64,000 nt of DNA, from contig CAZJBV010000003.1 in the NCBI GenBank assembly GCA_964544585.1, forward strand, positions 16,950 through 80,949, given 5' to 3'. The notes below the pieces were generated by a model that had not been told where the DNA came from, made no database searches, and was given only the letters and a program-made list of their open reading frames with translations. The DNA comes from an uncultured Gammaproteobacteria bacterium. GTDB taxonomy: Bacteria; Patescibacteriota; Microgenomatia; 2-02-FULL-39-11. Made by a program: the position numbers and the translations under genes. Below are positions 3,603 to 64,000 of the stretch, one piece after another. Within the stretch, counting starts at the first letter, position 1; every line of letters starts with the position of its first letter.

Positions 3603-4188
3603 GAAAATATTATTATTGGGGCTTATTATCATCATAGGTGGCTACCTATATTACTCAAGTAACAAACCAATCTTCAATTTCTCTCAACAACCCACAACCA
3701 ATTCACAAATAAATGTAAGTGAAGCTGTCGCCTCAAAATTTGATTATCTTTCCCAGAATGGCAACTCTTCTTGCTCTCTTTCGTTTAAAGACTCTATTCC
3801 AAATATGGCAGATGAGGAAAGACTGCTTGGCTCTTGTTGTAGCCCGATGAGCCTACATCGGTATAGTGAACAGGTTGAAGGTATCAAAAAATATTCACAT
3901 ATCCCCGAGATCCCCCCAGATCCATATGATATTGAGGTAGGACTAGCTAAGAAACTGCTGCCTTATTATGACCAAAATCTAACTTCCTCTGAACAAAAGG
4001 CTTATGACTTTGCCATGCAAAACTCGGATGAAAAAGGACCCTGCTGTTGTAAATGTTGGCGATGGTATGTGTATGGCGGACTTGGTAAATACCTCATAAA
4101 AAATTACAAGTTCACAGGCGAACAACTTACCGAAGTCTGGAATTTCTCCGATGGTTGCGGCGGAGATAGCGAGCATCACCATGCATAA
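3595..4188 (+). CDS. Cys-rich secreted protein, hypothetical metal-binding
   Basis: The ATG at 3595 is in frame and overlaps the arsR stop. It has an N-terminal signal-like segment MNKKILLLGLIIIIGG. Cys clusters include SCCSP, GPCCCKC and DGCGGDSEHHH. Confidence 0.4.
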   Translation: MNKKILLLGLIIIIGGYLYYSSNKPIFNFSQQPTTNSQINVSEAVASKFDYLSQNGNSSCSLSFKDSIPNMADEERLLGSCCSPMSLHRYSEQVEGIKKYSHIPEIPPDPYDIEVGLAKKLLPYYDQNLTSSEQKAYDFAMQNSDEKGPCCCKCWRWYVYGGLGKYLIKNYKFTGEQLTEVWNFSDGCGGDSEHHHA

Positions 4189-5641
4189 ACCAGTCCTTAC
4201 TGCCTTGTTTTACGGGTTAATAGGTTTAGTTGCCTCTTTGGCCTTATTCTTAGTCTTCTATTGGAGCTTAAGCCTTAATGCTAGTATTTACAATCTAGTC
4301 ACAAACTTCTCCACCGATTTACCTTTGTATTTTTGGCCGTATATCATCTTGACAGTCGGGACCATCATTCTTTTTGGTATCAACGTACCACTTTTTATTT
4401 ATCGCGTTCGAAAATACGGTTTTCCAAAATTTAGAATTCAAGGATCAACCGGCCTTGGAAGTGTAATTGGAGTTTTAGCCTCGGCTTGCCCAGTTTGCGG
4501 CTCAACTCTTCTTTCGGCAATTGGAATTGCTGGCGGACTTACAGCTTTTCCTCTTGGTGGGCTCGAGTTAAAAGCCCTATCATTTGGTCTTATGGCACTG
4601 CCTATTGTCTTAACCGGCAGGGAACTTTCAAGATTTGCTAAGGGTGGAAAAGCTTGCCCTGTACCTCGTGATGCTTCATTCAAGACCAAAGACAAACCAT
4701 GGCTTTTAGTTTTGGTTGTGGCAGTTGCACTTTTGGGATATTGGGGATTTAAAATGCTATCCCAAGACCCAATCTTTTTTGGATTCGTGAGTAAAACTAA
4801 CATTATCAATCCTAATGACAATCAGCTTTATGATGCCAGTCAAACCCCTGCCGAGAATAACCCTCTTTATGACGAGGTTGTGGCAAAAGTCTTACCAGAA
4901 AGAGGTTTTCAAAGCAAAATCGTATTGACTGATAGTATAGTCAAATTAGTAAAAAATGGGGTTATAGACAAGCAAAAATTTGAAAATATTTATAAAGAAA
5001 GGGGCGGTTTACCGCCCGAACTAAAAAATGTTTTAACCATTAAAACAGACAAAAGAATTCTTTTAACCAGAGAAAATGCCAACTATTATGTAAATCTCCT
5101 CTGGCCTCTTGGGTTATCCAACTATATGTCTACCAATAATAAAAGTCCCATCCTTGGAGACTCGCTTTTTAATTTTGCCTCAACTGGAGGTTGGAAATTA
5201 GGCAAAGAAGAAAATGGAGGTGCGTATTTTAATAAGCTTAAGATTGTTAAATTAACCAGAGAACAAGAAGCTTTGGTAACAAAGATTGCGCAAAATACCT
5301 ATCGACCTTGTTGTGATAATTCTACCTTCTTCCAAGACTGTAATCACGGATCAGCTCTTCTCGGCCTTTTAGAACTCGGAGCCTCTCAAGGACTCACCGA
5401 AGAAGAGCTTTACAGGGAAGCCCTAGCTTTTAATTCATTTTGGTTCCCTCATAATTATATTCAAACCGCACTTTATTTTAAGGTAGCAAAGAATACAAAT
5501 TGGGAAGATGTAAATCCTGCCGAAGTAATGGGGTATGACTATTCAGCTGTTAGTAATTGGGCAAAAAATGTTCAGGTGGAAATCGCTAAAATTCCCAATC
5601 TTCTTCCACAAACAAGAAGTGGCGTAGGTTGTGGGGTATAA
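4181..5641 (+). CDS. polytopic membrane protein with CPVCG motif and Cys-containing C-terminal domain (hypothetical)
   Basis: The internal Met at 4181 overlaps the upstream stop. Four to five N-terminal TM helices carry ACPVCGSTLL. The soluble C-terminal domain contains RPCCDNSTFFQDCNHG. Confidence 0.4.
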   Translation: MHKPVLTALFYGLIGLVASLALFLVFYWSLSLNASIYNLVTNFSTDLPLYFWPYIILTVGTIILFGINVPLFIYRVRKYGFPKFRIQGSTGLGSVIGVLASACPVCGSTLLSAIGIAGGLTAFPLGGLELKALSFGLMALPIVLTGRELSRFAKGGKACPVPRDASFKTKDKPWLLVLVVAVALLGYWGFKMLSQDPIFFGFVSKTNIINPNDNQLYDASQTPAENNPLYDEVVAKVLPERGFQSKIVLTDSIVKLVKNGVIDKQKFENIYKERGGLPPELKNVLTIKTDKRILLTRENANYYVNLLWPLGLSNYMSTNNKSPILGDSLFNFASTGGWKLGKEENGGAYFNKLKIVKLTREQEALVTKIAQNTYRPCCDNSTFFQDCNHGSALLGLLELGASQGLTEEELYREALAFNSFWFPHNYIQTALYFKVAKNTNWEDVNPAEVMGYDYSAVSNWAKNVQVEIAKIPNLLPQTRSGVGCGV

Positions 5642-45490: not shown

Positions 45491-46309
45491 ATGAATTATC
45501 GAAAGATTGATAATTGGCGAGAATATAAAGAACTTTCTGGTTTAAAAGATTTGCCAGATGCTCCAAAAGAAATCTACTATTTAGGAAATTGGAATCCAAA
45601 AATTTTTACAAACTGTGTCGCCATCGTCGGTAGTCGCAGAATGACAGAATATGGCCGGCGCGTAATTGAAAAAATAGTTCCCCAATTGGTTTTTGAGAAA
45701 AAGACAATTATCTCCGGATTTATGTATGGAGTGGATCAATATGCTCATCAAGTTTGTATAGAAAATAATGGCAAAACAATTGCCGTACTGGGATGGGGAA
45801 TTAATATTAAGCTTGAGGGAAATGATCGAAAACTCGCCGAAAAAATTATTAACTCCGGTGGACTCCTTCTATCTGAATGGGAAGATCAAAAAGGTAATCT
45901 TTGGACATTTCCCAAAAGAAATAGAATCATTGCCGCCCTTAGTCATGAAGTAATTATTATCGAAGCCGCGGTAAAAAGCGGCTCCCTCATTACCGCCAAT
46001 CTTGCCGGCAAACTAAAACGCACCCTTTGGGCAGTTCCCGGACCAATAACCAGTCCTACCTCTTTTGGCACAAATTCCCTTATTGCCCAAAATCAGGCCA
46101 TGATGTGGCTTGGGGGAAACCCGTCCAAACCAGCTCTTTCAAAAGATCCCCTATTAAATATGCTTCAAAGTGAGTCACTGACAACAAATGAAATTGCCAG
46201 AAAACTAAACCAATCTGTCGTCCAAACAGGCGCCCAACTATCGCTCCTTACCCTGTCCGGCCAAATAGTTGAAAAAGGAGGGAAGTATTATTTAAATTAT
46301 GTTGACTAA
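45491..46309 (+). CDS. dprA: DNA-processing protein DprA (Smf)
   Basis: The Rossmann-like DprA core contains IVGSRRMTEYG and SGSLITA. Confidence 0.8.
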   Translation: MNYRKIDNWREYKELSGLKDLPDAPKEIYYLGNWNPKIFTNCVAIVGSRRMTEYGRRVIEKIVPQLVFEKKTIISGFMYGVDQYAHQVCIENNGKTIAVLGWGINIKLEGNDRKLAEKIINSGGLLLSEWEDQKGNLWTFPKRNRIIAALSHEVIIIEAAVKSGSLITANLAGKLKRTLWAVPGPITSPTSFGTNSLIAQNQAMMWLGGNPSKPALSKDPLLNMLQSESLTTNEIARKLNQSVVQTGAQLSLLTLSGQIVEKGGKYYLNYVD

Positions 46310-47840
46310 AGTAAGTTCCGTTGCCAATATTGGACTTGAGACAATACCCATAGATGTTGAAGTTGATGTAGCCCAGGCCGGATTTCCTGGGTTTACCATC
46401 GTAGGACTTGCAAGTAAAGCAGTCGAGGAAGCCAGAGAGCGGGTAAAAACCGCCATCATCAATTCCGGTTTTGATTTTCCTCCCAAAAAAATAACCGTTA
46501 ATCTTGCCCCTGCTGATATCCCTAAAGATGGAGCAGCCTACGATCTGCCTATTGCCATAGGCATACTCCTCTCCAGCGGTCAGCTAACAATGGATGATTC
46601 AATTAATTTGGGAAAATCACTATTCTACGGCGAACTTTCACTGGACGGCACATTAAGACCTACTCGCGGAATTCTTCTTCTTGCCCTTTTTGCCAAAGAA
46701 AAATCATTTTCCACCATCTTCGTTCCAGAGATTTCGGCAGGTGAAGCCAGAGTCGTACCAGGTATAAATATAATGCCCTTAAAAACTTTGACCCAATTGG
46801 TAAACCACTTATCTGGAAAAACCACAGTTATTTCATTGGAGCATACCTCAATCAAAGATTCAATCGATGAAGTTTTGGCAGAATTTGATCTAAAAGATAT
46901 TGCCGGACAAGAACAAGCAAAAAGAGCTCTCATTATTGCTGCTGCCGGAGGGCACAATGTCCTCATGTGGGGACCGCCCGGAACAGGAAAAACCATGCTC
47001 GCCCGCTCACTCCCAGGTATACTTCCGCCGTTAACTCCAGAAGAGGCTCTCGAGGTGACCCGAATTTATTCTATCGCCGGACTTCTTTCCTCTGGAGAAT
47101 CTCTCATGAAAAAGCGTCCTTTTCGATCGCCACACCATGGTGTCTCTGCCGCAGGACTAATCGGAGGAGGAAGTAATCCCCTTCCTGGTGAAGTAAGTCT
47201 CTCCCACTTAGGCGTTTTATTCCTCGACGAAATGCCCGAATTTCAAAGGGGAGTTCTTGAAAGTCTCAGGCAACCCATGGAAGATGGTTTTATAGAAATT
47301 GTCCGAGTGTCAGGACACGTTCGCTATCCGGCAAGTTTTACATTAATCTCAGCAGTCAATCCCTGTCCCTGCGGCTATTTAGGTCATCCCAAAAAAGAAT
47401 GTAAATGTACTGAAAAACAAATTGCCAAATACAATCACAGGATCTCCGGACCTATTCTCGATAGGATAGATTTATATGTTTTAGTTTCCGTCATTGAAGC
47501 CGAAAAACTCTCCATCAATAGACCGAAAAGTAAAGATAACATCACCTCAAAACAAGCAAAAGACCTAGTATTAAAAACACGAAGAATCCAATACAAACGT
47601 TTTATGGGAATTTCAATATATACCAATTCTCAAATGAGAAATAAGGAAGTTAAAGAGTATTGTGAATTAACCCCTGAAGCAGAAAATCTTCTTAAATTGG
47701 CCTCAGATAAATATAATTTTTCCGCCAGAAGCTACTATCGCCTTATTAAAGTCTCCCGGACAATAGCAGACCTCGAAGGATCTAAAAAAATCTTTCCAAT
47801 CCACATGGCCGAAGCTCTTCAATACAAACAGCATATATGA
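46299..47840 (+). CDS. comM: YifB/ComM family Mg-chelatase-like AAA+ ATPase
   Basis: It has a Lon-like N-domain, a Walker A GPPGTGKT, and a Cys4 zinc motif CPCGYLGHPKKECKC. Confidence 0.8.
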   Translation: MLTKVSSVANIGLETIPIDVEVDVAQAGFPGFTIVGLASKAVEEARERVKTAIINSGFDFPPKKITVNLAPADIPKDGAAYDLPIAIGILLSSGQLTMDDSINLGKSLFYGELSLDGTLRPTRGILLLALFAKEKSFSTIFVPEISAGEARVVPGINIMPLKTLTQLVNHLSGKTTVISLEHTSIKDSIDEVLAEFDLKDIAGQEQAKRALIIAAAGGHNVLMWGPPGTGKTMLARSLPGILPPLTPEEALEVTRIYSIAGLLSSGESLMKKRPFRSPHHGVSAAGLIGGGSNPLPGEVSLSHLGVLFLDEMPEFQRGVLESLRQPMEDGFIEIVRVSGHVRYPASFTLISAVNPCPCGYLGHPKKECKCTEKQIAKYNHRISGPILDRIDLYVLVSVIEAEKLSINRPKSKDNITSKQAKDLVLKTRRIQYKRFMGISIYTNSQMRNKEVKEYCELTPEAENLLKLASDKYNFSARSYYRLIKVSRTIADLEGSKKIFPIHMAEALQYKQHI

Positions 47841-51101: not shown

Positions 51102-51500
51102 TCAGATAAATTCATAAGATAGTTGTCTTCGATATGCAATAGTACCTAGTGGAATAACTTCTGTTGATGAATCCACTTGAAAAGTTTGTTCGTCAATAAG
51201 CACGCCTCTATGATTATCTTTAATTAACTCTAAATTAAGCTCACCTTGAGCAAAGTCCAACCAATAAATATAAAAGGAATAAATATTAAACAGTACTATA
51301 GTTCTATTCACCGAGTCAAACTGAATTTTCTGTCTTTCATCGGGAGTAAATTTTGCAAGTTGAGTAGGTACAAAACGATATAATTTACGTTCTTTAACCA
51401 TCGCACGCAATTTATTACTGCCTGCAACCATAAAAGTTAAAGCTCTCTTTTCATGGTTTGGCCTAGAAATCCCCCATAGAGTTTCATCCAGTGGACTCAT
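51102..51500 (-). CDS. hypothetical protein (start uncertain)
   Basis: The ORF track extends to 51605 but that stretch overlaps the tRNA-Tyr gene. An internal Met near 51500 is more plausible. Confidence 0.3.
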   Translation of the reverse strand: MSPLDETLWGISRPNHEKRALTFMVAGSNKLRAMVKERKLYRFVPTQLAKFTPDERQKIQFDSVNRTIVLFNIYSFYIYWLDFAQGELNLELIKDNHRGVLIDEQTFQVDSSTEVIPLGTIAYRRQLSYEFI

Positions 51501-51563
51501 TGAGGAAGTATTATAGTGCAGCGGAGGTCGTAGACAAAATAATATTCCAACAATCCTCTTCAG

Positions 51564-51646
51564 TGCCGGGACCAGGATTCGAACCTGGGAAGGCGTGAGC
51601 CACATGATTTACAGTCATGCCCTGTTGGCCGCTTAGGTATCCCGGC
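51564..51646 (-). tRNA. tRNA-Tyr (anticodon GUA), type II long variable arm, CCA not encoded
   Basis: The cloverleaf was folded by hand from the reverse complement. Acceptor GCCGGGA/TCCCGGC is perfect. The anticodon stem CATGA/TCATG closes loop CTGTAAA. The variable arm is 14 nt (GGC-tcac-GCC). T-arm is CCAGG-TTCGAAT-CCTGG. The discriminator is A. Confidence 0.9.
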
Positions 51647-51647
51647 T

Positions 51648-51856
51648 TGGAGCCATTATATCAAATAGCTCGCACCTATTTTATCAAAAATTTTTGAAAC
51701 TTGATACTTTATTAAACTGTAGCAAGAAAAAGGGGTTTAAGGGGAAAATGAATTGCTACAGTTTCGCCAATCATTAAGCCTCGCTTCGCTCGGCTTTCTT
51801 TTTGCTTAGCCCTCCTTTCGGTCGGGTCTTCGCCTTCTCTCTTTGGGAAATTTTCG
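51648..51856. repeat. 209-bp inverted repeat, left copy (IR-L)
   Basis: It is 100% identical to the reverse complement of 62772-62980 by base-by-base comparison. It begins 2 nt from the tRNA-Tyr 5' end. It contains an internal 12-bp inverted repeat AAACTGTAGCAA...TTGCTACAGTTT. Confidence 0.9.
51655..51663 (-). promoter_or_regulatory. extended -10 promoter (TGATATAAT) for tRNA-Tyr inside IR-L
   Basis: TGnTATAAT ends 9 nt upstream of tRNA-Tyr +1. Confidence 0.5.
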
Positions 51857-52490
51857 TTATAAGGAAGGGGAAATTATTTTATAGAGTATTAGGTTTTTCT
51901 GATTCCGTCACAGCCCACCCACCCAATTTTTAGATGTAGGCGACTTCCCCCGCTTTGGGCGAGAGAGCTCCCTATGGGGAGCTTCGCTGGAAGTCATCTT
52001 GTTTTATCATCTCTTTACAGTCTCTTACTCGCTTCGGGAAGAATCGTTATCCATCCATACAGTCTTCGTCCCTCCGCTCACCTTGAGTTTGATTTAGTAT
52101 CGCCTGCCGTCGCGGGGGATATCCGCTTCCCCCTTTCGCTCATCCCGACTTTTCATCGGGATTCGCTATGTTCCCCCTTCCTGTGCTGGCTGGTCATCCC
52201 GCCATTGACATCGGCGGGATTCCGCCAGCACTAGGTGGGGGAGCCCCCGCCGCCTGATTTCTATCCCTTCCAGTGTCCGGTCGGCTCGTATCCCGCCTTT
52301 AGTCGGGATACTTCGCGCCTAGTTCGGACCGCTCACCCCGCGTTATCTTTATATAATGTATATCTCGCGGGGTTCGCCTTTGTCGGGAGCACTCTTACTT
52401 TATCTATTTGCCTTGATAGTCTTTCTGTCGTGCTCCCTCCTTTTAGGAAGCTACTATCCGATGGGGGCGGGGTCGGCGGATGTCGCCAAC
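51857..52490. ncRNA. GC-rich, hairpin-rich non-coding region (candidate large structured RNA)
   Basis: Local GC content is far above the genome background. Overlapping low-complexity ORFs fall on both strands with no protein-like sequence. There are several perfect 7-8-bp hairpins (AGCTCCC-TATG-GGGAGCT, ATCCCGCC-N9-GGCGGGAT, GTATCCCG-N8-CGGGATAC). Pyrimidine tracts and a TATAAT occur near 52352. Confidence 0.3.
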
Positions 52491-52850
52491 TTGGCCAATT
52501 ACTTTTTCCACTTGGCCATTTTCCACCATTTTGGCCAAGTTTCTTTTTCTGTTGGCCAATTAACTTGGCCAATTGGTGCATGGGCTTGTCCTGAGGCAAG
52601 TCGGAGGATATACTGGATTTATGAGTGACGATATTGGCCAATCAACAGATACATCTTCGGCTCCTCCGGTTTCCGATGTTCCATTGGCCAATACGCCAGA
52701 TTCCACTTGGCCAATTTCCACCAAAATGGCCAATGACCAACTACAAGAAGCATCACCATCTGGCCAATCAGCTAAAACTCCATTGGCCAATAACGATTCT
52801 GCATCGTCTCCGGACTTGGCCAATCAGGATGCAACCAGTTCTGGCCAAGT
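52491..52850. repeat. array of the palindrome TTGGCCAA(T), at least 13 copies, frequently about 21-bp spaced
   Basis: Exact or near-exact copies start at 52491, 52512, 52531, 52552, 52565, 52634, 52685, 52706, 52726, 52760, 52783, 52816 and 52840. Outliers are near 53100 and 53146. Copies occur in all three frames of the overlapping CDS, translated as LAN, WPI or GQS. Confidence 0.85.
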
Positions 52851-53685
52851 TACGACTTCACTAGACGCTTCTTCATCTCCCAATTTACCTAATCAGTCAT
52901 TACCGGCCGATTCCACTTCTTCCATATCTCCCCAACCTGCCTCGCCGGTAGACGGGTCACCCTCATCACTCCAATCTCCCACAGATAATTTACCCTCGCC
53001 TATTTCTGTTCCTTCACCATCAGTTGAACCATCCCAAATGCAATCCAGACCGTCAGATAGTCCTTCTCAAGATACTACAACTTCTACTCCTCCCGACTTG
53101 GCCACTATCAAGCCGGTGTCTCCACAAAGCCCCCAAAACACCTCATTGGCCAATGACAATTCTCAAAAAACAGAAGAAATTAAGCCCACATCTCCTCCCA
53201 AAAGTTCTTTTGGCGATATCCTAGCTAAAGAAAATCCGCCATCTTCATCTAATCCTTCTCCTCCTTCTACTTCTTCTAATCCTCCTAAACCGTCATCTTT
53301 CGGAAATATCCTACGAGGATACAGTTCTTCATCCCAATTAGACCAATCTTTGCATGATGAACCCAAAATTAATATAGAACCCGTCGTCCCACCAAAGCCA
53401 TCTCCGGCTGTTACTCCCCAGATCCCCCAACCACCCCAATTTCCCTTATCTCCCAATACAAGTGGCCTCCGCCAAAAAGCCAATCAAAAGCGACTCGACA
53501 AAAAACAAAAGAATCTCGACAGAATTATGCTCCTTATTAAAGAAACGGGAACTATCACAAACACAGATGTTCAAAGACTTTGTAGAGTTTCTCAAAGTAC
53601 GGCCACCAACTATCTTACTGAGCTGGAAAAGAAAGGTATGCTCAAACAAAAGGGTATTCGCGGTGGAGCAAAATATACTTTATGA
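52621..53685 (+). CDS. S/P/T-rich low-complexity protein with C-terminal winged-helix DNA-binding domain
   Basis: The Met at 52621 has a GGAGG SD 13 nt upstream. About 300 aa of disordered Ser/Pro-rich sequence carries a duplicated PxSSFG(D/N)IL motif. The C-terminus MLLIKETGTITNTDVQRLCRVSQSTATNYLTELEKKGMLKQKG is wHTH-like. Confidence 0.5.
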   Translation: MSDDIGQSTDTSSAPPVSDVPLANTPDSTWPISTKMANDQLQEASPSGQSAKTPLANNDSASSPDLANQDATSSGQVTTSLDASSSPNLPNQSLPADSTSSISPQPASPVDGSPSSLQSPTDNLPSPISVPSPSVEPSQMQSRPSDSPSQDTTTSTPPDLATIKPVSPQSPQNTSLANDNSQKTEEIKPTSPPKSSFGDILAKENPPSSSNPSPPSTSSNPPKPSSFGNILRGYSSSSQLDQSLHDEPKINIEPVVPPKPSPAVTPQIPQPPQFPLSPNTSGLRQKANQKRLDKKQKNLDRIMLLIKETGTITNTDVQRLCRVSQSTATNYLTELEKKGMLKQKGIRGGAKYTL

Positions 53686-54242
53686 AATCTAAACCCAGTG
53701 CACAAAACAAAAAGTCAGGGAAAAACAAATATGTCCTTGTTCCTCTTGCGCTTCTTTTATCTCTTTCCTCCTTTTTCGCAGGAACAAAGTATGAGAGCGA
53801 GATTAAAGATGCGATTGAAAACCAACCGGTTATAAATCAACAGCAGATCATAGAGTTTCCCACGGAAGCCAAAATTAAAAGAGTTATAGATGGAGATACT
53901 CTCGAGTTACAAAATGGACAAATCGTGCGACTTGTCGGAGTTAATACACCGGATCATGGACAACCATATGATGAAGAATCCACAGAGTTTACCAAAAAAC
54001 TCGTTGAAGAGAAAAAAGTAAATATTGAATATGATGAGTATAAATCAGACAGATTCGGAAGAATTCTTGCATACGTAGTAATAAACAACAAAAACCTCTC
54101 CATTGAATTAGCCAAACGAGGATTAGCCAAAGTTACTATCTACGAAAAAAGAAAACCACTTATTTATCAAGAGCAATTATTAAATGCCGAAAAAGAAGCA
54201 AAATTAAAAAAATTAGGTATTTGGAAAGCAGGTGATAAATAA
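53682..54242 (+). CDS. staphylococcal (micrococcal) nuclease homologue, secreted or anchored
   Basis: It has an N-terminal signal/TM segment. SNase motifs DGDT, RLVGVNTPD and DRFGRILAYV are present. Confidence 0.75.
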   Translation: MKSKPSAQNKKSGKNKYVLVPLALLLSLSSFFAGTKYESEIKDAIENQPVINQQQIIEFPTEAKIKRVIDGDTLELQNGQIVRLVGVNTPDHGQPYDEESTEFTKKLVEEKKVNIEYDEYKSDRFGRILAYVVINNKNLSIELAKRGLAKVTIYEKRKPLIYQEQLLNAEKEAKLKKLGIWKAGDK

Positions 54243-54523
54243 TGGATTTTCAAATAGCAGCTTTACAATTTTTATCAGGTGGCATGGGAGGATTAGTCAG
54301 AGCAGTTGTTGGTATCACTAAAGCCAAAGAATTCGATCCCGAAAAATTCAAATTTCAGTGGAAATATTTCGCAATCACTATTATTGTGTCTATAATCACC
54401 GGTCAAATGGCTGGACTTATTGCAAATGCCGACTGGCGTATGTCCTTATTAGCTGGCTACGCAGGGAGTGATTTTTTGGAGAGCCTATACAAATTAAGAT
54501 TTGCACAATTTTTTAAGTCATGA
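54242..54523 (+). CDS. small hypothetical membrane protein
   Basis: The 93-aa product has two hydrophobic segments. It is translationally coupled to both neighbours. Confidence 0.35.
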   Translation: MDFQIAALQFLSGGMGGLVRAVVGITKAKEFDPEKFKFQWKYFAITIIVSIITGQMAGLIANADWRMSLLAGYAGSDFLESLYKLRFAQFFKS

Positions 54524-56154: not shown

Positions 56155-56919
56155 ATGTTAAAAATTTCTGGAAAAAATTTAGCAGAATTAGCTTTACCAA
56201 ATACTTGTTCTACTTGCTTTAGAATTAAGGTAAATTTGGACGCACAAATGAGTATCGAGCGTAAGAAAATTCCCTATCAAATGCCTATGCCAGGAATTTT
56301 CGCTAATTTAGATTCGCATATAAAACAAGTTGTAAAACATTATTTTGAAATGCATGGTAGAGTGCCTTCATGGTTTCCAAATATTGGAAGCCAAATAGTT
56401 AGCATTGAATCTCCACCAGGCTGGCAAAAATTCAACGCTTTTATTTCTGAATATAACATCTTTTTGACTGGCGCTCTTGATGTCGTTTTTAAATTAAATG
56501 ATGGTTCATTTGCGTTTGGTGATTATAAAACAGCAAGATTCTCTGAAATGCACGATAGTTTAATACCCTTATACAAAGCTCAATTACATAATTATCTAGA
56601 AATTGCAAAAAGAAAAGGAATTTTTACTCCTGTTTCTAAGTTATTTTTAATTTATGCAGAACCCCTGGACTATAAACCTTACGATGGAATATATCAACTC
56701 ACAGATTTCGAGAAGCTTTTTAAATTGCATTTCAGAGTCATACCAAAACTATTAGAAATCGATACTTATTTGACAGAAAACTTATTAAAGAAGGCTCGCT
56801 CAATTATGAGTAAGCATAATCCTGAAGCATTACCTAATTGTCCAAATTGCGCTTTGAGGACGAGGCTATATAATGAAGAATGTTTGCTAAGATCATCTAA
56901 TAAAGAACAAATAGTATGA
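56155..56919 (+). CDS. putative PD-(D/E)xK-fold nuclease with CxxC...CxxC
   Basis: The core reads GALDVVF...FAFGDYK (D...D-x-K). It has an N-terminal CSTC and a C-terminal CPNC. Confidence 0.4.
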   Translation: MLKISGKNLAELALPNTCSTCFRIKVNLDAQMSIERKKIPYQMPMPGIFANLDSHIKQVVKHYFEMHGRVPSWFPNIGSQIVSIESPPGWQKFNAFISEYNIFLTGALDVVFKLNDGSFAFGDYKTARFSEMHDSLIPLYKAQLHNYLEIAKRKGIFTPVSKLFLIYAEPLDYKPYDGIYQLTDFEKLFKLHFRVIPKLLEIDTYLTENLLKKARSIMSKHNPEALPNCPNCALRTRLYNEECLLRSSNKEQIV

Positions 56920-59900
56920 ATAACTCTATATTAAATTTTATAAGATATTGCCTTAGTTACGTAAAATTAACCAGAAACCGAACTATACTAGATCAGCAGA
57001 AATACTCTGTTGATCTTCCGATGGATTATTTTGGGTTACTTGGTTTATTAAACGGAGATACGGATGAAAAGAATGGTGAGTTAATAAACCTAAAAACTTT
57101 CTATTCCTACGATCCCAAAAATGTTCCAGATGATGAGTTAAGTATTTATGAGAAAGAAAAAGAATTAGCAAACAAGATCGAGGAAATTTATAACAAATAT
57201 CGTAACGACCAATATACAAAGCAAGTAATTTTAAGTTTTGGATATTTCGAAATTGAAATTCCTATCGAAGAGAATGGCGACGTTGTTACACAAGCGGAAC
57301 AAGAGTCAGACGAAAAGCTAACTAAAACCAAAGTTGATCGCTATCCGCTTTTTTCATTACCGGTGAGAATAGAGAAAGAAATTCGCCAAATTGGAGTTGG
57401 AGAATATCTAGTTTACTTCGTTGATCCTGAAGTTCAAGTAAATATCGGAATACTAGAACCATTACTAGGGGAAGATCTATATTTTCAACTTTTGGAAGAA
57501 ATTGGGAAATACGAAATTGAAGGAAGACTAACATTACCAATATTAGATTTAGAAATATTTAAAGAGATTTGGCACAAAATAAAGGCACAATTGCGCTTAA
57601 AAAATGCCAAATTTAATGAACAATCTTTTTCATTAGAAGAAGTAAAAATAGCCCTTGGCCCCAAAGCAAATTACTTCCTCGCAGAGGATCTAGCTAAATT
57701 GAGTCAATTAACAGAGGAAGAGCTTTCTAAAACTGCCCTTACATGTTGGACAGAAGATGAAGGATTAAATGTTGAAAGTGATATTCCACAAGAAAAAGAT
57801 TTATATTTTCCCTTTTTATATGATAAATATCAGCTCTCCTCTCTATCAATACTTGGAAACGTCGCCTCAATTGTTCAGGGACCACCTGGAACAGGAAAAT
57901 CGGAAACGATTTCAAATATACTTTGCCACCTAGCTGCCACTGGAAAAAAAGTTTTATTCGTTAGTCAAAAAGCACAGGCTCTTAAGGTTGTTAAAGATAA
58001 ACTAAAAAAGCTAGAAATAAGGTATTTATTTGGATATTTGCCTAACCCAAATTCTGCTCAAATCGGAGAAGAGGATGAAGCTGACGGTATTGCGCCTCAA
58101 CTGAGCGCTATTGGTTCACATATAGAAAAGATGAGTTTTACACAATATTCAAGTTCTAAATTCGCTCGCTATGTAGATAAAAGTGAAGTAGCTAGCTTGA
58201 TTCATTCTGCTGTTGAAGAAAAAACTGTTAAACGAACTTCATTGAATAGCGTAATTAATGCTCAGAGAAAATATTATCAACTAAACCAAGAACTTTTAAA
58301 TCTTAAAGAATATGACATTGACATTACTGATTTTAGTTATTTCACTCAAACATTCTCATCATTTGAGTGGCAGGAAATCAAGAAAGCAAAAGCGGAAATA
58401 GAAAATCTTAGTGAAATAATAAAAAAATATGAACTAAGTAATGAAAAAAAGGAATATGATAGTCTTTTTCCTTCACTCAATAGAAACCTTGGAGAAATCG
58501 CTGACCAGATTGGAACTATCAGAGATGATGTTGATAAAACAGGTTTTGACCGTCATTCAAAATTTTTGAGAAAAATAAATAACATGAGCCGCGATTTCCG
58601 TCTTAGTAATATTCGTGGAAAGCTCCCACGAGAGATTATCGATCATGTAGATAATATTTTACAAGCTGATAAATCAAGAAGCGAGCAAATAAAATTACTC
58701 GATAATCTCTATAATCATTGTTCCTATTTCAAAAACATTCGGATGCTTAATGGATTTGAAGAAGCCTTAAATCAAAGATTAAATATATGTGGTGTTTCAG
58801 ATAAAGAATTTAAAATTATAGATGAAAAAATTAACAAATCTGCTTCTGCATCTTTAGACGATATCAAAGCTAAAATCCTACGAGTTCAGGAAATAAAATA
58901 TGAACTAGAAATGCTCAAAAAGACTGAAAGCCCAAATAAGATATCTTTAGCAGTGAAGCGTTTCGAACAAAACAGAGTAAAACGTGTGGGGCAATATATT
59001 CAAAATATTATTAATCAAGGAATACTTGAAAAATGGAGGTCAGGTGTAACAATTAAGCAAATTGTAAGAAAACTAGCTAGTGCTTTTGGAAAATCAAAAA
59101 AGGCATTCAAGACCTTTGATAATCTACGTAAAGACATAAACAATTTTAATGCAATTCTTGATTTGATTCCTATTTGGATCATGGAACTCGATGATGCAAG
59201 TCGCATTATTCCACTTGAGGTTGGCATTTTCGATTATGTAATTTTAGATGAAGCATCGCAATGTAATGTAGCATATACCTTGCCAGTCATGTACAGGGCG
59301 AAGAAAATATTATTTGTGGGAGATAGTGAACAAATGCGAGATAGTACTATAATGTTTAAGTCTAATAGGGTTTTTGATGAACTTGCTCGCAGATATCAAA
59401 TTCCTGAGGAAAGACAAATAAAAGCGACTGGAACTTCAGTGCAATCTGTCTTGGATATTGGTTATAAACGAGGTTTCATGGATCGTCCACTTAGATATCA
59501 TTATCGGTCGCCTGCAGAATTAATTGGCTTTAGTAATAAATACTTCTACAAACCAAAAGGTAAAGAATTAATACCAGTTAATAACAATTACCTATCTTAT
59601 AAAGATACGAACCGTATAATGTTTGTACATGAGGTTAAATCTAATTGGAAGGAAGAATTCTCTGATAACATAAACGTTGCAGAGGCAAACAGAATACTTA
59701 AGCTTTTTAAAGAATTGCGAAGTGATATTCGTTATCGAGATAAATCTATTGGTATTTTAACTTTCTTTAATGCACAAGCTGCTTTTATCCGAGATCTTTT
59801 TGAAAAAGAAGGTTATAAAGAAGAAGAGGATAATTACAAAATTAGCATTATTGAAGGTATACAAGGAGACGAAAAAGATATTGTTTTTTACTCATTTGTT

Positions 59901-60479
59901 ATTAGATCCATTGAACAGAAAAATAAGTACGTACCTCTAACTGGTGAAGGAGGAGATCTCCGATCAGATATAAATAAGGGTCGAGTGAATGTTGCTTTTT
60001 CGCGAGCAAAACTACAAGTGCATTGTTTTGTTAGTCTTCCACCTAATGAAATGCCAGAAAGAATTTGGCTAAAGAAATACCTTGAGTATATACATGACAA
60101 TGGTGCAGTTGAATTTTATTCAGATGATCTTAAAACTTTTGATTCCTATTTTGAAGAAGAATTTTATGCGTTATTGCGAAAAAACTTAAAGCGTGGTCAT
60201 AAGATCCAAAATCAGGTAAGAAGTTGTGGATTTAAAATTGATTTTGTTGTTAGCAATTTAAATTCTGGAAAACGTTTAGCGATCGAGTGCGACGGTCCAT
60301 GCCATTTTAAAGATGAATTAGATGAGTCATATGGCATCTATGTGGGAAGCGATGAAGAAAGACAAGCTGTACTAGAAGCTGCTGGATGGAAGTTTTGCCG
60401 GATCAAATATTCAGATTGGATTGACGAAAAATTTGATCGCAATATTGTTACTCAATCAATAATGAATTTACTAAAATAA
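56916..60479 (+). CDS. Upf1-like SF1B helicase with N-terminal unknown region and C-terminal DUF559 (Vsr/restriction-endonuclease-like) domain
   Basis: Walker A is GPPGTGKS, motif II is VILDEASQ, motif V is GIQGDEKDIVFYS, and motif VI is GRVNVAFSRAK. The C-terminal domain reads KRLAIECDGPCHF...AAGWKFCRIKYSDW. Total length is 1187 aa. Confidence 0.75.
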   Translation: MNNSILNFIRYCLSYVKLTRNRTILDQQKYSVDLPMDYFGLLGLLNGDTDEKNGELINLKTFYSYDPKNVPDDELSIYEKEKELANKIEEIYNKYRNDQYTKQVILSFGYFEIEIPIEENGDVVTQAEQESDEKLTKTKVDRYPLFSLPVRIEKEIRQIGVGEYLVYFVDPEVQVNIGILEPLLGEDLYFQLLEEIGKYEIEGRLTLPILDLEIFKEIWHKIKAQLRLKNAKFNEQSFSLEEVKIALGPKANYFLAEDLAKLSQLTEEELSKTALTCWTEDEGLNVESDIPQEKDLYFPFLYDKYQLSSLSILGNVASIVQGPPGTGKSETISNILCHLAATGKKVLFVSQKAQALKVVKDKLKKLEIRYLFGYLPNPNSAQIGEEDEADGIAPQLSAIGSHIEKMSFTQYSSSKFARYVDKSEVASLIHSAVEEKTVKRTSLNSVINAQRKYYQLNQELLNLKEYDIDITDFSYFTQTFSSFEWQEIKKAKAEIENLSEIIKKYELSNEKKEYDSLFPSLNRNLGEIADQIGTIRDDVDKTGFDRHSKFLRKINNMSRDFRLSNIRGKLPREIIDHVDNILQADKSRSEQIKLLDNLYNHCSYFKNIRMLNGFEEALNQRLNICGVSDKEFKIIDEKINKSASASLDDIKAKILRVQEIKYELEMLKKTESPNKISLAVKRFEQNRVKRVGQYIQNIINQGILEKWRSGVTIKQIVRKLASAFGKSKKAFKTFDNLRKDINNFNAILDLIPIWIMELDDASRIIPLEVGIFDYVILDEASQCNVAYTLPVMYRAKKILFVGDSEQMRDSTIMFKSNRVFDELARRYQIPEERQIKATGTSVQSVLDIGYKRGFMDRPLRYHYRSPAELIGFSNKYFYKPKGKELIPVNNNYLSYKDTNRIMFVHEVKSNWKEEFSDNINVAEANRILKLFKELRSDIRYRDKSIGILTFFNAQAAFIRDLFEKEGYKEEEDNYKISIIEGIQGDEKDIVFYSFVIRSIEQKNKYVPLTGEGGDLRSDINKGRVNVAFSRAKLQVHCFVSLPPNEMPERIWLKKYLEYIHDNGAVEFYSDDLKTFDSYFEEEFYALLRKNLKRGHKIQNQVRSCGFKIDFVVSNLNSGKRLAIECDGPCHFKDELDESYGIYVGSDEERQAVLEAAGWKFCRIKYSDWIDEKFDRNIVTQSIMNLLK

Positions 60480-62771: not shown

Positions 62772-62980
62772 CGAAAATTTCCCAAAGAGAGAAGGCGAAG
62801 ACCCGACCGAAAGGAGGGCTAAGCAAAAAGAAAGCCGAGCGAAGCGAGGCTTAATGATTGGCGAAACTGTAGCAATTCATTTTCCCCTTAAACCCCTTTT
62901 TCTTGCTACAGTTTAATAAAGTATCAAGTTTCAAAAATTTTTGATAAAATAGGTGCGAGCTATTTGATATAATGGCTCCA
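62772..62980. repeat. 209-bp inverted repeat, right copy (IR-R)
   Basis: Its reverse complement equals 51648-51856 exactly. Confidence 0.9.
62965..62973 (+). promoter_or_regulatory. extended -10 promoter (TGATATAAT) inside IR-R, reading outward
   Basis: This is the mirror copy of the tRNA-Tyr promoter. Confidence 0.45.
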
Positions 62981-63046
62981 TCTCCCGACTTGTCGGGGCC
63001 GCCCGAAGGGCGGCCCAGGGAGGAAGCGCGTTCCCACCTGCTTTTG
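62981..63046 (+). ncRNA. candidate small GC-rich RNA made of three consecutive hairpins
   Basis: The hairpins are CCCGA-CUUG-UCGGG, GGCCGCCC-GAA-GGGCGGCC and CAGGGA-N10-UCCCaCCUG, followed by CTTTTG. It starts where the tRNA starts in the mirror copy. Confidence 0.3.
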
Positions 63047-63293
63047 TATCTTTTAAGAAAATTAGCGTAAAGATTCAATGATACTCGAAAAATTCTACTA
63101 AAACATAGAGTTTTTCGTTATTAACTCTCCCTTGCGATGTTTTATTCCTCCGATTATCACCGGAGGAAACTTTGCCTTTACACTGAAAAATGCATCAGCA
63201 TTTTTTACGTGCAAAAAAATAAAAAGAATTTTTGCTCCGGTTTGATTTATTTAATCATATTGTAAAATCTTTCATCTCATATATATTTATGAT

Positions 63294-63361
63294 GCACACA
63301 AAATATTCCTGTTGAGATTTTTAGTGGCCGTCCTGGTACAGATCTCAACAGATTTGTGTGC
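63294..63361. promoter_or_regulatory. imperfect 68-bp palindrome upstream of the serine recombinase gene (candidate recombination site or operator)
   Basis: GCACACAAA..CTGTTGAGAT - 22-nt centre - GATCTCAACAG ATTTGTGTGC. It ends 25 bp before the recombinase ATG. A NotI-like GCGGCCGC lies just downstream. Confidence 0.4.
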
Positions 63362-63385
63362 AACCGGGGCGGCCGCTTGAAATTT

Positions 63386-64000
63386 ATGAATATATCACCT
63401 GTCAATCATTCAATAATTAAATCTCATAGAAATTATTTGAAGCTAGGGTTACCTATTCAGCAAAAATTCTTTTTATATGCGCGCAAGTCAACAGATGTAG
63501 AAGATAAGCAGATACAATCAATAGAAGCACAATTAGTCGAACTTCGTGAATTTGCAAAACGGGAGGGTTTTCAAATTGTAGAGGAGCTCATTGAAAAACA
63601 ATCAGCCAAGATACCGGGTCGGCCAGTTTTCAATTCGATGATAGAGCGAATTGAAAAGGGTGAAGCCTCCGGTATCTTGGCCTGGCATCCGGATAGACTT
63701 GCGCGAAATTCTATTGACGGAGGAAAAATTATATATCTTATCGATACGGGTAAAATCAAATTCTTAAAATTTCCACAATTTTGGTTTGAGTCTACCCCGC
63801 AAGGTAAATTTATGCTTTCAATTTCGTTTGGGCAAAGTAAATACTTTGTGGATTCCCTCTCAGAAAATACCAAGCGTGGTCTTCGCCAAAAAGTGAGAAA
63901 GGGAGAATTTCCCAGTCTTGCACCCGTAGGATATCTCAATGACACGAGAACCAAAACGATTGTACTTGATCGAAAAAAAGCTTCTGTTATTAAAAAGCTC
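63386..64000 (+). CDS. large serine recombinase (3' partial, runs off window)
   Basis: I translated it by hand; it is missing from the ORF track because no stop falls in the window. The product begins MNISPVNH. It carries YARKSTDVEDKQIQSIEAQ (catalytic Ser context) and AWHPDRLARN. The recombinase-domain GY is in APVGYLND. Confidence 0.7.
   Translation, partial: MNISPVNHSIIKSHRNYLKLGLPIQQKFFLYARKSTDVEDKQIQSIEAQLVELREFAKREGFQIVEELIEKQSAKIPGRPVFNSMIERIEKGEASGILAWHPDRLARNSIDGGKIIYLIDTGKIKFLKFPQFWFESTPQGKFMLSISFGQSKYFVDSLSENTKRGLRQKVRKGEFPSLAPVGYLNDTRTKTIVLDRKKASVIKKL

Follow-up and report, generated by a model that had tools for sequence, protein, structure and literature searches.

To our knowledge, large and intricate bacterial RNAs of obscure function are few (OLE, GOLLD, ROOL, HEARO and raiA), and each of those studied has given unexpected biology. 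GOLLD and ROOL are large ornate RNAs of prophages and other mobile regions that form RNA-only cages (PMC12286853), and OLE RNA has a membrane protein partner, OapA (PMC3413148). The non-coding RNA content of the Candidate Phyla Radiation (CPR) has been little explored. Here we describe a conserved element of about 0.6-0.85 kb in a 64,000-nt stretch of a Microgenomates contig (CAZJBV010000003.1, positions 16,950 to 80,949; 'the window', to which positions refer unless another locus is named). From sequence comparison we think it on balance probable that this element, at 51648-52490, specifies a large structured non-coding RNA (ncRNA) not described before, which would be encoded on the minus strand, act in trans and form a component of a recombinase-associated cassette. 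A full-text literature search found neither a published large structured RNA from the CPR nor a prior description of the element itself.

The resemblance to GOLLD and ROOL is that of an ncRNA candidate of 0.6-0.85 kb with many covarying helices, variable expansions and a mobile carrier, here beside a tRNA gene. Unlike them, the element has no sequence or structure match to Rfam models to E<=10 and no match in viral contigs; it resides in CPR Microgenomates, where it is tied to an operon encoding a winged helix-turn-helix (wHTH) protein, an SNase-type nuclease and a 93-amino-acid membrane protein (p93), and to a serine-recombinase cassette bounded by inverted repeats. A first-pass annotation of this stretch, made from the letters alone, had suggested a large ornate RNA in a mobile context; this has become our best reading, although membership in GOLLD, ROOL or HEARO found no support in Rfam to E<=10, and the tRNA adjacency that the annotation took as typical is not conserved, a tRNA adjoining only some loci. 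With OLE the element shares the arrangement of a ~600-nt structured RNA (here a candidate) encoded beside the gene of a small, very conserved membrane protein (here p93). This likeness is one of gene neighbourhood: there is no Rfam OLE match and no detected relation of p93 to OapA, and the element is mobile and multi-copy whereas OLE is a chromosomal housekeeping locus.

Extent, conservation and non-coding character

The element is the most GC-rich, ORF-free part of the window (ORF, open reading frame). GC content in 200-nt windows peaks at 0.63 (52100-52299) and is 0.585 at 52200-52399; among 1-kb bins, 52001-53000 is highest at 0.512, the remaining bins lying at 0.30-0.44. The plus strand is rich in pyrimidines, with AT skew to -0.46 and GC skew to -0.26, so that the compositional bias described in the first-pass annotation is real. 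The region it had delimited as 51857-52620 is likewise real, but its limits have to be redrawn: the conserved element is larger on the left side and ends at 52490, and 52491-52620 is sequence of another kind, an operator and promoter region apart from the element. The element itself has two parts:

51914..52490, minus strand (read 52490 to 51914): Part A, a structured domain of ~577 nt closed by the helix P1, and the GC-rich core of the element; recognized by nhmmer homology and covariation, with no Rfam match
51648..51856, minus strand (read 51856 to 51648): Part B, the left arm of an inverted repeat, comprising small hairpins, a long hairpin whose C-rich loop is conserved and, facing outward, a promoter-like box

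Homologues of the wHTH protein led to loci (given L-numbers here, where they are compared with the window) that all have a 0.7-1.3 kb ORF-free, GC-rich gap upstream of the wHTH-SNase-p93 trio, with flanks that differ from locus to locus. Homologous regions were found upstream of the trio in >15 Microgenomates lineages. A scan with one genome per species yielded 21 further loci in Gottesman-, Beckwith- (one complete genome), Woese- and Amesbacteria and other Patescibacteria, a pattern derived from the RNA matched six metagenome contigs, and look-ups of p93 homologues added L042 and L043. An nhmmer profile built from Gottesman-type sequences recovers >20 loci with the order of blocks kept, at E-values from 1e-254 to ~1e-9.

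The ORFs called over the element are short, overlapping and on both strands. Between close relatives, indels divisible by three number 2/10, 2/10, 2/10, 0/6 and 3/11 in five sequence pairs; the longest stop-free frames switch strand and frame between lineages, and no peptide or amino-acid sequence is conserved. As most indels break the reading frame and none of the frames is conserved, we conclude that the element is non-coding and that the ORFs are artefacts, in agreement with their earlier description as overlapping junk.

The element and the trio can occur apart. L016 carries the element without a wHTH, SNase or p93 gene, and L024, L039 and L044 carry the wHTH gene without the element. The two parts of the L016 element are separated by an inserted ORF of 206 amino acids (3968-4588), which has no Pfam match and is preceded by TATACT-N9-ATG.

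Fold and covariation of Part A

The 844-nt stretch folds better than its dinucleotide shuffles, with z-scores of -8.1 on the minus and -4.3 on the plus strand. Covariation was examined in two alignments, A5 (the 5' domain, 16 sequences) and A6 (the 5' end joined to the last 160 nt, comprising P1 and the 3' domain), with helix partners slid by 1-3 columns and 500 shuffles as controls. In A5, 97.7% of cells are paired, against 39-50% when slid, and both sides change in 13/30 pairs, against 2-5; none of the 500 shuffles reaches the observed value. In A6 the paired cells amount to 92.2% (29-55% when slid), with both-side changes in 8/16 pairs. Compensatory change, the generic mark of a structured RNA, is thus found in both alignments far above the slid and shuffled controls. 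Several hairpins and P1 are supported by it, in line with the hairpin-dense, structured element seen in the first-pass annotation. The features of Part A are as follows:

52482..52490, minus strand: 5' strand of P1, GUUGGCGAC, pairing with 51936-51944
51936..51944, minus strand: 3' strand of P1, GUCGCCUAC
52385..52437, minus strand: hairpin GGGAGCAC...GUGCUCCC, helix 3 of A5, with both-side changes in 6/9 pairs
52336..52372, minus strand: hairpin CCCCGCG...CGCGGGG with a variable AT-rich loop and both-side changes in 7/9 pairs
52116..52243 (approximate limits), minus strand: lineage-specific expansion of ~110-130 nt in the GCGGGGG...CCCCCGC helix, with hairpins AUCCCGCC/GGCGGGAU and AUCCCGA/UCGGGAU
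51966..51983, minus strand: hairpin AGCUCCC-CAUA-GGGAGCU, with both-side changes in 5/7 pairs over 16 sequences
51914..51924, minus strand: G-tract GGGUGGGUGGG (plus strand CCCACCCACCC), 11 nt past the 3' strand of P1, at the end of Part A

The long-range helix P1 closes ~550 nt and is predicted by RNAalifold from A6 unprompted. Its duplexes are present in 14 lineages, with UA/AU and GC/AU exchanges as compensatory states; by eye, GGUGG/CCACC is seen in L026 and GGCGCU/AGCGCC in L034 and L037, and an odd A at 52483 of the window is answered by U. RNAalifold also offers for A5 a local 5' hairpin, GGCGG/CCGCC, which we rejected; it shows no double changes and is broken by the window's A, and P1 is preferred because it explains that same A. 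The hairpin at 52385-52437 passes from AGCAC/GUGCU through AACGC/GCGUU to CUG/CAG, and that at 52336-52372 from CCCCGCG/CGCGGGG to CCCGCCG/CGGCGGG, among other states. The three stem-loops and the C-tract at 51914-51924 listed in the first-pass annotation are present as it described them. Its TATAAT at about 52352, taken there as the end of the element, falls in the variable AT-rich loop of the hairpin at 52336-52372.

Around these helices the architecture is modular. The expansion at 52116-52243 is present in the window, L010, L012, L014, L035 and L042 and absent from L003, L009, L016, L019, L023 and others, and in Woese-type loci the whole 5' domain is absent while P1 is kept. After P1, the G runs of GGGNGGGUGGG are invariant in 16 sequences, with spacer letters that vary between U, C and A. 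A second copy of the module in the same metagenome-assembled genome (MAG) as L001 (L002; contig JACPKX010000015.1, 5440-5895) holds, between its TGGCCA array (see below) and Part B, a different, non-homologous GC-rich domain that is also P1-closed, with its own 10-bp closing helix UCGCCAGUGG/CCACUGGCGA; no relatives of it were found among the fetched loci. Because this slot holds a non-homologous domain in L002, the slot rather than a particular sequence seems to be the conserved feature.

A more prosaic explanation would take the region for a mere accumulation of independent hairpins serving as terminators or insulators, or else for a low-complexity gene in decay, lacking both a global fold and a product. 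Short ORFs are called there, and Part B does behave as a terminator-plus-promoter boundary module. Yet the long-range P1 covaries, the order of blocks is kept across class-level lineages, indels break the frame with no conserved peptide, and single-stranded motifs are invariant. We consider this explanation largely refuted, and hardly credible in what is left of it.

Searches for known families

All 4227 families of Rfam 15 were searched with cmscan, at gathering thresholds on the window and seven homologous loci and permissively (E<=10, or 5) on 51300-53000 and five homologous loci. These scans, the covariance-model check proposed with the first-pass annotation, returned tRNAs and chance microRNA and small RNA matches only. 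The models of GOLLD, ROOL, OLE and HEARO found no member in them, and RNase P RNA, group II introns and riboswitch leaders gave no match to E<=10. ARAGORN detected only a tRNA-His and a tRNA-Tyr and no transfer-messenger RNA (tmRNA). An RNase P RNA or tmRNA in disguise was rejected, with neither core motifs nor a model match. Among mobile DNA collections, blastn against phages and plasmids (INPHARED, PLSDB) gave zero DNA matches for the element, and two conserved element patterns had no match in IMG/VR viral contigs; p93 is likewise without a match in the public phage, plasmid and viral collections searched, and no phage structural genes were seen in the element's context.

The inverted repeat and the recombinase cassette

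Part B has an exact counterpart more than 10 kb away, next to which a recombinase gene begins:

51714..51764, minus strand: 12-bp hairpin with the conserved loop UUCAUUUUCCCCUUAAACCCCUUUUUC, followed on the minus strand by UUUAAU (terminator-like)
51655..51663, minus strand: outward extended -10 box TGATATAAT, a putative promoter 8 nt before tRNA-Tyr
51563..51646, minus strand: tRNA-Tyr(GUA), in the cassette flank and outside the family, its 5' end abutting Part B
62772..62980, plus strand: right arm of the inverted repeat, where Part B recurs over 209 nt with 100% complementarity to 51648-51856
63380..64000, plus strand: gene for a large serine recombinase (CcrB/XisF-like), its N-terminal part, running off the window, ~400 bp outside the right arm

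The arms are 10,915 nt apart. This 209-bp perfect inverted repeat bounds the cassette, and the element does lie at its interior left end as had been noted. An NCBI record, JACPKX010000017.1 (a Candidatus Gottesmanbacteria MAG; locus L001), agrees fully with the window over 20 kb but for two missing segments, 51789-51849 (61 nt, left repeat copy) and 62914-62989 (76 nt, right copy), as a result of which its repeat is only 74 bp. We regard the window's version, which matches the homologues L002 and L010, as the fuller one. The difference in L001 reflects either assembly trouble in the repeats or real heterogeneity between two copies, and the perfect 209-bp identity is provisional, to be checked against reads.

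The stem of the Part B hairpin differs completely from lineage to lineage, whereas the 27-nt C-rich loop persists (AAACUGUAGCAA, AUGUUGCGAUGA, GGCGGCGGCAA, CAUUCGCGUCAA). The outer end of Part B carries, in all lineages, a box TATAAT, TATAAG or TATAAA after GTNCGA; that of the right arm points to the recombinase gene and that of the left copy to tRNA-Tyr. Inverted copies of Part B enclose 5.9-7.4 kb in L003, L031, L032 and L038, and in L042 a second, inverted copy of the hairpin lies ~12.4 kb away, with no recombinase within the fetched sequence. Just outside the Part B end, L031 (3932-4216) and L014 (3440-3760) have a convergent gene for a small RRM_1 RNA-binding protein.

The recombinase is closest to CcrB and XisF models and distantly related to phage serine integrases. 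Its orthologues, at 53-75% identity, adjoin the module in L003, L010, L013, L031, L032 and L038. In L010 and L013 the recombinase is found towards Part A, with its relative orientation reversed; it is on the far side in the window, L003, L031, L032 and L038. Opposite orientations are what inversion between the repeats would produce, as far as a comparison between lineages can tell. The inverted repeats, the serine recombinase and the occurrence in multiple copies make a mobile context clear, and the cassette is probably invertible as well. Its cargo varies between copies and has a defence-like look: a PDC-S37/Hhe-like helicase-nuclease (56916-60479), Cas4-like nucleases and a trypsin-like protease in the window, and a type ISP restriction enzyme and an OLD-family nuclease in L042.

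It is the cassette, not the RNA, that recalls the invertible segments of phages Mu and P1 (Gin/Cin) and the staphylococcal cassette chromosome (SCC, with Ccr), each an inverted-repeat segment with a serine recombinase just outside one repeat. The cassette of the window has inverted repeats at both ends and an adjacent recombinase, as a Gin/Cin/Hin-like segment does. The likeness to the C segment of phage P1 lies in the long repeats, and is accompanied by a recombinase most similar to CcrB/XisF and by cargo that varies between copies. In contrast to Gin and Cin, the recombinase is of the large serine type and not a small invertase, the repeats are of 75-209 bp, each containing a structured hairpin and a promoter-like box, and inversion is suggested by opposite orientations between lineages, not within one population.

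Several smaller features surround the recombinase gene. It is itself flanked by inverted repeats of 89-108 bp in L003 (11329-11436/12900-13007) and L010 (2145-2233/3907-3995), and in both loci a hairpin-rich region upstream of it is the reverse complement of the 3' end of the ORF; the equivalent region of the window is 62981-63070. Directly before the recombinase start codon, at 63318-63378, lies a conserved hairpin GGCCGUCC...GGGGCGGCC whose inner stem covaries between the window and L010 (within 3640-4000, minus strand). To judge by its position, it may be a translational control element.

The control region and the divergent operon

Beyond the P1 end of Part A lie an array of short palindromic sites and the wHTH operon:

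52491..52572, no strand assigned: five TGGCCA sites spaced 21/19/21/13 nt, a spacing kept in L002, L009, L010, L011, L012 and L013
52609-52614, plus strand: -10 box TATACT of the wHTH gene
52621..53685, plus strand: wHTH gene, with a Ser/Pro-rich N-terminal part and a MarR/HTH_24-like C-terminus
53682-54242, plus strand: gene for an SNase-type nuclease, a conserved partner of wHTH
54242-54523, plus strand: gene for p93, the 93-amino-acid membrane protein, a conserved partner of wHTH

TTGGCCAA occurs 12 times in the window against 1.8 expected, and 10/12 of these copies fall within 52491-53153. A 27-bp motif, TTGGCCATTTTCCACCATTTTGGCCAA, of the pattern TTGGCCA(A/T)TTTCCACCA(W4)GGCCAA, occupies 52512-52538 and has a second copy within the wHTH ORF (52707-52733). 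Beckwith-type loci have this motif between the two parts of the element, and Woese-type loci have it immediately upstream of P1. Within the 5' coding part of wHTH the motif encodes a conserved peptide, TWPISTKMAN. Its occurrence inside an ORF points to selection at the level of DNA. The TGGCCA array is probably a shared operator for the wHTH protein, which we regard as the likely binder because of its resemblance to MarR-type repressors.

The sequence TTGTCC-17-TATACT ends six nt before the wHTH ATG (6-9 nt across homologues), a conserved arrangement which suggests that the wHTH mRNA is leaderless. Because it has its own conserved -35/-10 directly before the ATG, the gene needs no fold as leader. 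The first-pass annotation had considered the element a long 5' leader of the wHTH gene and assigned that gene a GGAGG Shine-Dalgarno sequence; the former is not supported, given the gene's own -10 box and the separability of element and gene (L016; L024, L039, L044), and the latter is not conserved in homologues, where the conserved feature is the TATACT 6-9 nt before the ATG.

The same evidence bears on a plus-strand RNA, which would be either an extended structured leader or an RNA lying upstream of the wHTH operon in the orientation of that operon. In its favour, most homologues fold equally well on either strand, two A-C mismatches in Part B become G-U on it, and the element is usually directly upstream of the wHTH gene. 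The wHTH promoter and the TGGCCA array that separates fold from gene speak against it, however, as do unpaired bases of ~44% U and 20% A, unusual for structured RNAs, and the lack of a fitting terminator and promoter logic. Moreover, in Beckwith-type loci the operator and promoter are on the opposite side of Part A, and element and gene occur apart. We therefore think a plus-strand RNA rather unlikely.

Of the three proteins, p93 is the most constrained: it keeps 92-94% identity where the wHTH protein has 56-60%. A set of 5.8 billion proteins contains 174 clusters of it, all of ~90-95 amino acids, and its similarities are weak and confined to holin and CrcB models. In some lineages (L031 5194-6345; P0012; P0014; L042 8941-9942) the wHTH protein contains a Peptidase_M23 domain mid-protein, an odd partner for a C-terminal MarR-like DNA-binding domain.

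The array next to a closed fold also invites comparison with plasmid replication control. ColE1 RNA II is a primer precursor, and Part A, if transcribed, would resemble it in being a folded ~550-nt RNA followed by a G-rich run able to hold an RNA-DNA hybrid. On this explanation the minus strand would encode a replication primer precursor like ColE1 RNA II or mitochondrial conserved sequence block (CSB) II, its G-run forming the hybrid or a G-quadruplex, with the wHTH protein and the iteron-like sites as initiator. The size and closed fold of Part A fit, the invariant GGGNGGGUGGG with its variable spacers comes directly after the fold, and the array, spaced 21/19/21/12-13, precedes the wHTH gene. 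But the element differs from RNA II in having no homology to it, no known replicon and no RNA I-like antisense partner. It is an integrated, recombinase-flanked cassette with no known episomal form, and was not found in the viral contigs, phages and plasmids searched; the wHTH domain is MarR-repressor-like and not Rep-like, and the G-run may instead be part of a promoter (GGGTTGATA...TATGAT in L012). We consider a primer precursor improbable.

Strand, and RNA versus DNA

Three observations favour the minus strand. Read in this orientation, 38-45% of unpaired positions are A and 18-23% U, and unpaired positions of known structured RNAs are A-rich; the hairpin and U-run that close Part B read as a terminator on the minus strand only; and in L016 the element is co-oriented with the flanking ORFs. 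The choice of strand, and that of RNA over single-stranded DNA, is nevertheless tentative.

Several results weigh against a minus-strand RNA. Among 1337 paired cells in helices predicted on both strands, G-U occurs in 22 and A-C in 18 (p=0.64), and Part A z-scores in seven homologues are similar on both strands, so that the minus-strand advantage of the window does not generalise to them; RNAalifold energies likewise show no consistent strand bias. Because the wobble and z-score results are unusual for a one-strand RNA, they leave room for a fold in single-stranded DNA or on the other strand. In the hairpin of Part B, two A-C mismatches (L010, L034) would turn into G-U if the plus strand were read. 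Upstream of P1 no strong sigma-70 consensus was detected, and many hairpins bear C-GAA-G caps, a cap that is exceptionally stable in DNA.

An alternative is that the fold acts in DNA, either as a single-stranded structure or as a DNA-level accessory region (for instance an initiation or origin signal in single-stranded DNA during replication or transfer, an origin region having also been considered in the first-pass annotation, or recombinase architecture). In its favour, the helices are Watson-Crick almost throughout, G-U and A-C each making up ~1.5%; the two strands fold equally well in seven homologues; and C-GAA-G capped mini-hairpins are frequent. The element is tied to inverted repeats and a recombinase, the adjoining five-site array is iteron-like with sites ~two helical turns apart and a DnaA-box-like TTTCCACC, and the cumulative GC-skew minimum lies near 53-54 kb. 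On the other hand, a 550-nt closing helix with nested variable domains is a typical RNA feature, one strand has a strong excess of A at its unpaired positions, and Rep, relaxase, primase and HUH genes are absent from the conserved core. Moreover, the sites on which serine recombinases act are duplex, and copies of the element exist apart from the recombinase and the wHTH gene (L016, L042). A DNA-level role thus seems unlikely to us, though it is the strongest competitor of a minus-strand RNA. If the fold does act as DNA, it is an unusually elaborate cis element.

Proposed mechanism and implications

The conservation of the element, its non-coding status, the covarying helices with P1 among them and the cassette layout we regard as demonstrated, whereas strand, transcript ends and role are proposals. 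In our proposal, transcription of the RNA would have its start inside the TGGCCA array or adjoining it, and the leaderless wHTH-SNase-p93 operon would be read divergently. Part A, ~577 nt, would be made first, as a multi-helix domain closed by P1, with lineage-specific expansions and ending in GGGUGGGUGGG. Transcription would then continue into Part B, where the C-rich-loop hairpin and U-run are taken as the putative 3' end. The product would be a stable trans-acting RNA of the OLE/GOLLD/ROOL type, presumably co-regulated with the divergent operon via the shared TGGCCA sites. Instead of serving as a cis leader, it would have its part in the life of the cassette as an RNA or as a particle of RNA and protein. 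Because Part B is duplicated in inverted form at the far end, next to the recombinase, the putative RNA gene is a fixed component at the inner left end of the cassette.

It is tempting to go further and to see here a new class of large RNA integral to a serine-recombinase cassette of the CPR, serving as cofactor or regulator of inversion or integration, or as a particle that self-assembles with p93 and the wHTH protein, in a slot that takes alternative P1-closed domains as in L002. This more ambitious reading we hold to be doubtful. A bridge-RNA-like guide was considered and rejected: complementarity between Part A and the cassette junctions amounts to chance 8-9-mers only.

Testable handles are offered by the neighbourhood of the element (the operator sites, the wHTH protein, a nuclease of secreted type and the small, very conserved p93), by its modular architecture with a swappable core and by its fixed place in a defence-cargo cassette beside a large serine recombinase. 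Should the RNA indeed work together with the recombinase or with proteins of the cassette, large structured RNAs would become connected to DNA rearrangement or to defence islands.

Replication-related features of the window

The cumulative GC skew of the window has its minimum at ~53000-54000 and turns positive over the cassette; the C-rich wHTH gene and a cassette that is probably of foreign origin confound this signal. A chromosomal oriC was considered here and rejected, given this confounding by the wHTH gene and a module that is multi-copy and repeat-flanked. A few kb upstream of the cassette, at 45491-47840, lie dprA and comM-like genes (DNA uptake and processing).

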